Virus record (IMG/VR): IMGVR_UViG_3300010376_000004
Direction: 5' to 3' (one strand)
DNA from: a virus
DNA: 64,000 nucleotides
Shown: in pieces, positions 55,175 through 55,944 of the stretch
Position numbering within the stretch: the first letter of the stretch is position 1
Layout of the letters: each line of letters starts with the position of its first letter
The notes under the pieces: model-generated
What the model saw: the letters and a program-made list of their open reading frames with translations, nothing else
Told to the model about the DNA's origin: nothing
Databases searched by the model: none
Translations under genes and position numbers: made by a program

Positions 55175-55719
55175 GGGATCTGCGCCCGGTGATCGTAAAC
55201 TGGGATGGCGAGAAGCTGGCCCCCACGCCTGAGTCCTTACCGCTGTGCATGCGTCAATTTGAAAAGGGCGAACTGTATCAGCTATCGGCCGAACGTCAGC
55301 GCAGCGTGGCCAGCCATCGCGAGTTCATGGCCCTGGTCAATGAAGCTTTCCATAATCTGCCGGAACGCTATGCCGACCGGTTTCCGACCGTTGATCGGCT
55401 GCGTTATTGGTGCCTAGTCAAATGCAATTACTGTCACGAGCAGACGATCGTCTGCGATACCGTGCGCGAGGCCGAGCGCTGGGGCAACTTCCTGATGCAA
55501 TTGCAAGAGGACGCGATCGTGCAGTGGACCGGTGGCGTCATCAAGATGTGGACCCCCAAGAGCCAACGCTACAAGCACAACCCGGAAATGAGCTACGAAG
55601 AGTTCGAGCAGGCCAAGGAGGCTGTGCTGGAGCTATTGGCCGAAATGATCGGAGTTCACCCGCGCGACCTGCGCAAGAACGCCGGCATGGCTTATGGGGC
55701 CACTCAGCGAGCCACATGA
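55171..55719 (+). CDS. NinB/DUF1367-like recombination-associated protein (GTG start 55171)
   Basis: RSVASHREFMALVNEAFHNLPE...TPKSQ...MSYEEFEQ; GTGA coupling. Confidence 0.55.
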   Translation: MRDLRPVIVNWDGEKLAPTPESLPLCMRQFEKGELYQLSAERQRSVASHREFMALVNEAFHNLPERYADRFPTVDRLRYWCLVKCNYCHEQTIVCDTVREAERWGNFLMQLQEDAIVQWTGGVIKMWTPKSQRYKHNPEMSYEEFEQAKEAVLELLAEMIGVHPRDLRKNAGMAYGATQRAT

Positions 55720-55944
55720 CGATAGCAGCCCAATCCAGGGAAGTGAGCCAGAAAGACCTAGAAGCCCATCCGCTCCCAGCGAGCCATCAAGGACAAGGCA
55801 TCCAGCGCAGAATAGCGAGCCAGATAGCCCTAGAAGCCCATGCGCTTCAAGCGAGCCATGAAAGACAAGGCATCCACTGCAGAATAGCGAGCCACATGAC
55901 GATAGCAACCCAATGACAGGCAGCGAGCCGTAAACAGGAAGGAA
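55706..55944 (+). repeat. TIGR-like dual-spacer guide RNA array, upstream part: six complete 36-nt units starting at 55710, 55746, 55782, 55818, 55854, 55890, plus a partial seventh at 55926
   Basis: Every unit parses as AGCCA-N9-AGnnnnCCA-N9-AG(C/T)G with an exact 36-nt period. Confidence 0.93.

Follow-up and report, generated by a model that had tools for sequence, protein, structure and literature searches.

Paired guides in the TIGR array of a soil-metagenome phage are most probably copied units that later drifted apart within a TIGR-TasA array. The array lies in a stretch of 64,000 nucleotides of phage DNA, which was analyzed as a whole and is called the window here, and we compared it with the arrays of related loci. 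A first-pass annotation of the window had proposed that the guides are duplicated, that their halves are swapped and that they are retuned to follow silent variants of a coding target. Duplication, divergence and half-swapping held up in our analysis, whereas the tracking of silent variants did not.

Organization of the TIGR locus

The upstream array is a six-unit dual-repeat TIGR array with a period of 36 nt (55706-55930, + strand). Each unit consists of an edge repeat AGCGAGCCA, a 9-nt spacer A, a loop repeat of the form AG-N4-CCA and a 9-nt spacer B, and all six units fit this build exactly. Edge and loop repeats are alike in having AG at the 5' end and CCA (box C) at the 3' end, and the four central bases of the loop repeat differ among the units. 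Tandem Repeats Finder (TRF) detected periods of 36 and 72 in this array. Our parse agrees with the six units of the first-pass annotation, with their pairing and with all six 18-mers that it had derived as spacer A followed by the reverse complement of spacer B, rc(B). The units and the gene that follows them are listed below.

55706-55741, + strand: unit 1, spacer A CATGACGAT, loop AGCAGCCCA, spacer B ATCCAGGGA
55742-55813, + strand: units 2 and 3, first copy of a 72-bp block
Unit 2, in the first 72-bp copy: spacer A GAAAGACCT, loop AGAAGCCCA, spacer B TCCGCTCCC
Unit 3, in the first 72-bp copy: spacer A TCAAGGACA, loop AGGCATCCA, spacer B GCGCAGAAT
55814-55885, + strand: units 4 and 5, second copy of the 72-bp block
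Unit 4, in the second 72-bp copy: spacer A GATAGCCCT, loop AGAAGCCCA, spacer B TGCGCTTCA
Unit 5, in the second 72-bp copy: spacer A TGAAAGACA, loop AGGCATCCA, spacer B CTGCAGAAT
55886-55921, + strand: unit 6, spacer A CATGACGAT (the same as in unit 1), loop AGCAACCCA, spacer B ATGACAGGC
55922-55930, + strand: terminal edge repeat AGCGAGCCG, which closes the upstream array
55956-56906, + strand: tas gene, 316 aa, directly downstream of the upstream array

The identical edge and loop repeat pattern occurs at the equivalent position in 130 related loci. Array and tas are a dual-repeat TIGR-TasA system, a further example of a known family. The following features surround them.

53712-54551: erf, which forms a recombination module together with yqaJ and the 188-aa ORF
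54434-55174: yqaJ, in the same recombination module
55153-55719, + strand: upstream ORF, 188 aa, no Pfam match, ending within unit 1
56905-57064, + strand: downstream TIGR array, read from the sequence as four units plus a collapsed one; its edges are degenerate
45093-45170, + strand: orphan TIGR-like mini-array of two units, 10.5 kb from tas
58374-58396, + strand: terminator-like hairpin, the first on this strand past the locus

The edge and spacer A of unit 1 (CATGACGAT, the spacer repeated in unit 6) overlap the stop codon of the upstream ORF (55717-55719). Since this stop codon lies within spacer A of unit 1, the array starts inside coding sequence. No promoter-like site was found beside the array. 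The spacers of the downstream array are unrelated to those of the upstream array. A 133-aa ORF (57065-57466) begins one base past the last downstream unit and has no Pfam match at E < 0.01. The two A spacers of the mini-array, GCGAAATGC and TGGGAATGC, have the same base at 6 of 9 positions and so make up another paralogous pair.

The array was identical in four soil metagenome runs, with zero population variation seen, which indicates that it is not hypervariable over a short time scale. The locus was present in DNA metagenome runs only. Rfam gave no match for the locus, phage records contained distant relatives of the exonuclease gene only, and a genome collection contained a single distant Tas relative.

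The Tas protein

Tas consists of a coiled coil and a Nop-type RNA-binding domain and lacks a nuclease domain, which is the TasA type. A profile of eight Tas homologues matched TasR (9MTY, E 4e-14) and TasH (E 2e-12). The AlphaFold model (pLDDT 88, pTM 0.82) has a long coiled coil and a helical domain with one beta-hairpin, and its top Foldseek matches were TasH and TasR (E 6e-9 to 6e-8; TM up to 0.75 by target), followed by IS621 (E ~1e-3), archaeal Nop5 and then Nop56. In Pfam, Tas gave a weak match to the IS110 C-terminal domain only and none to a nuclease; its sequence has two cysteines and no HNH-type motif. As Tas carries neither a RuvC nor an HNH domain, it is expected to bind its target and not to cleave it. 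TasA proteins have been described as RNA-guided repressors (Xu 2026, doi 10.64898/2026.09.09.750476). In dual-repeat Tas, a C-terminal Y/H loop cuts the precursor into 36-nt tigRNAs (Xu 2026, doi 10.64898/2026.09.09.750476). Across 50 Tas homologues Y301 never varies, and most of them have a histidine close to position 310; this conserved C-terminal Y301...H310 is a candidate counterpart of that loop.

Paired units differ in their spacers

The six upstream units sort into three pairs without remainder. A 72-bp tandem duplication accounts for units 2-3 and 4-5 (TRF period 72, 88% matches, 55745-55894). Between the copies, 9 of 36 spacer positions and 1 of 36 repeat positions are different, the latter in an edge, and the loops are identical. 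Loops vary between unit types yet match exactly within pairs 2/4 and 3/5. By pair, units 3/5 differ at 4 of 18 spacer positions and units 2/4 at 5 of 18, and transversions account for six of these nine differences. Units 1/6 have no difference in spacer A (0/9) and five in spacer B (5/9). About one in 10,000 unrelated unit pairs is expected to show five differences or fewer, and the upstream array contains 3 such pairs among 15. The similarity of the paired units is thus far beyond chance.

Duplication, swapping and drift in the family

We gathered 164 loci with Tas relatives and parsed 131 arrays, which gave 77 non-redundant clusters with 1090 units. In these 77 arrays, 47 within-array unit pairs had at most 5 of 18 differences, against about one expected; the expectation was taken from comparisons between arrays, and a control with swapped halves gave 0. 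The 44 pairs with 1-5 differences differed at 172 of 792 spacer sites, 10 of 396 loop sites and 18 of 396 edge sites. Their differences were even along the spacer positions, transitions and transversions stood at 88:84, an ordinary ratio, and 3-nt periodicity was absent (P = 0.61). That guides are duplicated, as had been proposed, is therefore borne out by the 72-bp tandem copy and by the recurrence of near-duplicate units across the family.

Pairs with one identical half and an unrelated other half were also found, 22 of them in 18 arrays. In L114, a third unit joins spacer A of one unit to spacer B of another (A1+B2). Together with the shared spacer A of units 1 and 6, this agrees with the earlier proposal that spacer halves swap independently.

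Near-identical tas loci allowed spacers to be compared with tas third codon positions. Orthologous spacers were 2.1-3.4% apart, tas third positions 2.0% and repeats 0.4-0.5%; in strict orthologues, spacers differed by 2.1% and repeats by 0.4% at 2.0% tas third-position divergence. Spacers might also be hypermutated or under diversifying selection. A test that admitted diverged best matches (five differences or fewer) gave P = 0.01, but the signal was gone with strict orthologues, and we rejected the idea as unproven. Between near-identical phages, whole array units were gained, lost, duplicated and recombined, and single-base variants of one guide coexist in some arrays, e.g., L144 and L150. 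Six loci (L144, L150, L145, L140, L153 and L137) have less than 2% third-position divergence in tas, yet share a minority of their units; the order of the shared units is partly retained, and the conserved units tend toward the tas-distal end of the array. The closest relative of the present locus, L001 (90% protein identity, 44% third-position divergence), has its array in the equivalent place, and no recognizable spacer is common to this array and the upstream array. Arrays of this clade regularly change by duplication, by recombination of half-units and by drift, and the turnover of their content is much faster than that of the tas gene.

A possible shared central base pair and codon phase

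The order of half-sites used here, spacer A followed by rc(B), had been proposed in the first-pass annotation. Cutting was reported on the 5' side of the nucleotide opposite spacer base 5, with 8-nt 3' overhangs as the result (Faure 2025, PMC12045711). By our own derivation, the proposed order reproduces this pattern, and the opposite order would yield 10-nt 5' overhangs.

Base 9 of spacer A is the Watson-Crick partner of base 9 of spacer B in 375 of 985 units, against 247 expected (38% versus 25%; array-level P = 2e-8). Each of the four pair types is enriched, and G:U falls below expectation. In the window, the units with an A9:B9 pair begin at 55706, 55778, 55814, 55850, 56997 and 57033. An RNA-RNA base pair as the cause of this complementarity is disfavored because G:U combinations are depleted. 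Previous work reported no obvious covariation between A and B (Faure 2025, PMC12045711).

Codon phase gave a second relation between the halves. Spacer A and rc(B) were out of phase at a contiguous junction (z = -3.5) and in phase at an offset of 2 mod 3 (z = +3.3); a period-3 phase is common to both at an offset of -1 (or +2) only. Simulated coding targets confirmed the calibration of the test. A model-free version was positive in 54 of 69 arrays (P = 1.7e-5), and the signal remained after A9 and B9 were dropped (P = 0.005). It was equal in units with and without an A9:B9 pair and about half that of simulated sites of 17 bp that were fully coding. The coupling joins A to rc(B); between A and B on the same strand there was none. 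Along with the A9:B9 complementarity, this gives indirect support to the view that the two spacers would act together on opposite DNA strands. About half of the family guides thus carry a coding-sequence signature. A 2-bp gap between the half-sites fits the phase result and conflicts with the complementarity. The simplest reading of both signals is that natural sites would span 17 bp, that both guides would read the central base pair, and that many of these sites would lie in genes.

In an all-against-all search, 1327 guides of the family were run against 0.8-1.4 Mb of its loci, with gaps from -4 to +4 and in both orders. This search yielded single exact matches only. The -1 offset had the most one-mismatch matches (45 versus ~30), an excess that was non-significant after correction for 18 categories. 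A guide common to L089 and L126 (AAATCTAAT / GAACAAATA) matched L137 exactly at 3701-3720 with a 2-bp gap, its lone match. This site covers codons 2-8 of an early gene whose product starts with MEQIQLDL, and such a match is near the chance expectation (~0.04-0.3). A guide of L029 (TTGTAGTCG / ATCTACGAC) had a match within tas of L062 (~1336-1352), at a site of 17 bp whose halves overlap by 1 bp; this match is also single and near the chance expectation.

Codon readings and alternative explanations of the paired units

The paired guides had been read as synonymous variants of one coding target, and the codon readings themselves are present as described: AAG/AAA and GCG/GCA in units 3/5, and CTC/CTT, GGT/GGG and CTT/CTA on the other strand in units 2/4. 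The proposal of adaptive retuning, in which selection fitted each copy to its own allele or escape variant of one coding target, builds on these readings and is unlikely. The pattern is not significant once the choice of frame is allowed for. Binomial tests of differences in one phase gave P = 0.33 for units 3/5 (3/4) and P = 0.63 for units 2/4 (3/5). When random substitutions were simulated in these 18-mers and the most favorable of the six frames was picked afterwards, P was 0.45 for units 3/5, 0.145 for units 2/4 and 0.064 for both jointly. The statistical weight of the synonymous pattern is thus nil to marginal. The joint value is in the direction that retuning predicts, as are the differences at the -1 offset in 30 family pairs, where 51 of 130 (39% versus 33%) fall in the same phase; together they amount to a weak trend toward synonymous-type change. 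The coexistence of single-base guide variants in L144 and L150 and the coding signature in about half of the family guides are also in its favor. Against it, two codon changes in pair 2/4 are non-synonymous, the last-position difference of pair 3/5 falls on a first codon position, and most differences between the 72-bp copies are transversions. Across the family, the 44 pairs lack periodicity, the halves are out of codon phase at the contiguous junction that was assumed, and orthologous spacers evolve no faster than third codon positions.

Target searches weigh in the same direction. Tracking of alleles or escape variants had been expected to show as hits above chance; a search with the 18-mers in IMG/VR, one large collection, gave matches at chance level (0-2 exact matches per 18-mer), and paired units matched unrelated genes. 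For this collection, that is the outcome which the first-pass annotation had named as a refutation. A degenerate pattern of units 3/5 gave eight matches: two of unit 3, one of unit 5 and five of mixed-variant controls. All eight, controls included, are read in the K-D-N-S-A frame of unrelated genes. Since the mixed controls share this frame, it belongs to the letters and not to a target. Unit 2 had two matches and unit 4 one, in unrelated ORFs. For the pattern of units 1/6, the real variants accounted for 3 of 48 matches, where 6 would be expected if the 16 variants were equal. With the 17-bp geometry, unit 3 matched about eight independent lineages and unit 5 two, and the proteins had no shared homology. 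These counts are those expected by chance for words of such length and a collection of such size. Most likely, the synonymous-looking pattern is a coincidence.

It is quite improbable that the paired guides address paralogous or repeated sites in one target genome, such as variant operators or repeated gene starts, and that the copies are kept since each covers a different member, coding or not. The function of TasA proteins as repressors, the sorting of six units into three pairs and the exact match of the L089/L126 guide to codons 2-8 of an early gene would all fit such a site family. However, that lone cross-phage match is near chance, and a repeated target family was found in no collection searched. 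Within the window, too, no unit matched any site at three mismatches or fewer, whichever order of half-sites was used, in line with the first-pass annotation, which had seen no self-target.

That the repeats are not guides at all, and serve instead as translated sequence (an ORF spans 55407-55916) or as iterons bound by a protein, is hardly credible. Open frames do cross the array on both strands, but its 36-nt grammar, with two CCA-ending 9-nt repeats and two variable parts of 9 nt, matches dual-repeat TIGR arrays exactly. This grammar recurs in 130 loci beside homologues of Tas, where the spacers are unrelated, and spacers A and B show no same-strand codon phase.

Comparison with known systems

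The locus shares 9-nt spacers and a 3' box C (CCA) in both repeats with published dual-repeat TIGR-TasA systems (Faure 2025, PMC12045711; Xu 2026, doi 10.64898/2026.09.09.750476). As in those systems, the arrays flank a small nuclease-less Nop-domain gene and are of phage origin, and a 5'-truncated first edge is also seen in relatives. Several features differ. Box D is AG here, not UG, in both repeats, and a co-change of both repeats at box D has been allowed for (Faure 2025, PMC12045711). Furthermore, the four central bases of the loop vary between units, the locus is inside an erf/yqaJ recombination operon, and there is an A9:B9 excess where no A/B covariation was reported.

TasR (9MTY) and TasH (9W04 and related) have the coiled coil and Nop core in common with the present Tas, and likewise a dual-spacer, two-strand targeting geometry. 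They carry a nuclease, whereas the present Tas has neither RuvC nor HNH.

CRISPR arrays are likewise tandem repeats and spacers that are processed to guides, and recombination between their repeats deletes and duplicates units. In contrast to CRISPR, the present system has no Cas1-Cas2-type adaptation module and no polarized spacer addition, its guides are two 9-nt halves that read opposite strands, and spacer change appears to proceed through duplication, recombination and point drift.

The bridge RNAs of IS110/IS621 are related through a homologous RNA-binding domain (Foldseek E ~1e-3) and have bipartite guides that read both DNA strands. Unlike these elements, the present system lacks a DEDD recombinase domain and a donor loop, and it has arrays instead of one RNA per element. 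In bridge RNA, both guide segments cover the central core dinucleotide. This coverage would resemble the 1-bp overlap suggested for the present clade.

Proposed history and function of the array

We propose that the paired guides are paralogs, and that the short repeats of the array would have given rise to them as sites either of unequal recombination or of slippage during replication. Units 4-5 are probably a tandem copy of the two-unit block 2-3. Units 1 and 6 may go back to an older duplication and make up a third pair of copies, or they may reflect recombination that retained spacer A and brought in a different spacer B. Once the copies existed, point substitutions would have accumulated in the 9-nt spacers at a roughly neutral rate, and crossing-over within the loop repeat would reshuffle the A and B halves.

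Array and tas are probably co-transcribed with the early recombination genes of the phage. On the basis of the literature, the transcript is predicted to be cut into 36-nt tigRNAs. Each tigRNA would guide a nuclease-less TasA dimer, with spacer A pairing with one DNA strand and spacer B with the other, and the predicted outcome is DNA binding and repression without cleavage. Single mismatches were reported to abolish the activity of TasR, and neutral spacer drift is poorly compatible with such mismatch intolerance. Given the drift, either many guides are decaying or TasA is more tolerant of mismatches.

A wider reading can be put forward tentatively, at somewhat less than an even chance. Arrays may renew their guides without acquisition machinery, by duplication, crossing-over in the loop and near-neutral drift, and the targets may be 17 bp long and about half of them coding.

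Implications

How spacers are gained and what their natural targets are have been named as open questions (Faure 2025, PMC12045711; Xu 2026, doi 10.64898/2026.09.09.750476). The present locus is an ordinary member of its family, and its wider value is in how TIGR arrays change. It is an unusually tidy case, as every upstream unit belongs to one of three pairs. Because duplication, swapping and drift are regular in the clade, retuning to silent variants is unnecessary to explain the paired guides here. If confirmed, the A9:B9 pairing and the -1 offset would give a rule of 17-bp sites with one shared base pair; if this is true, the published model of 18-bp contiguous sites would be wrong for searches for natural targets in this clade. 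Such a rule, once confirmed, would serve both target searches and the design of guides of the TasA type.
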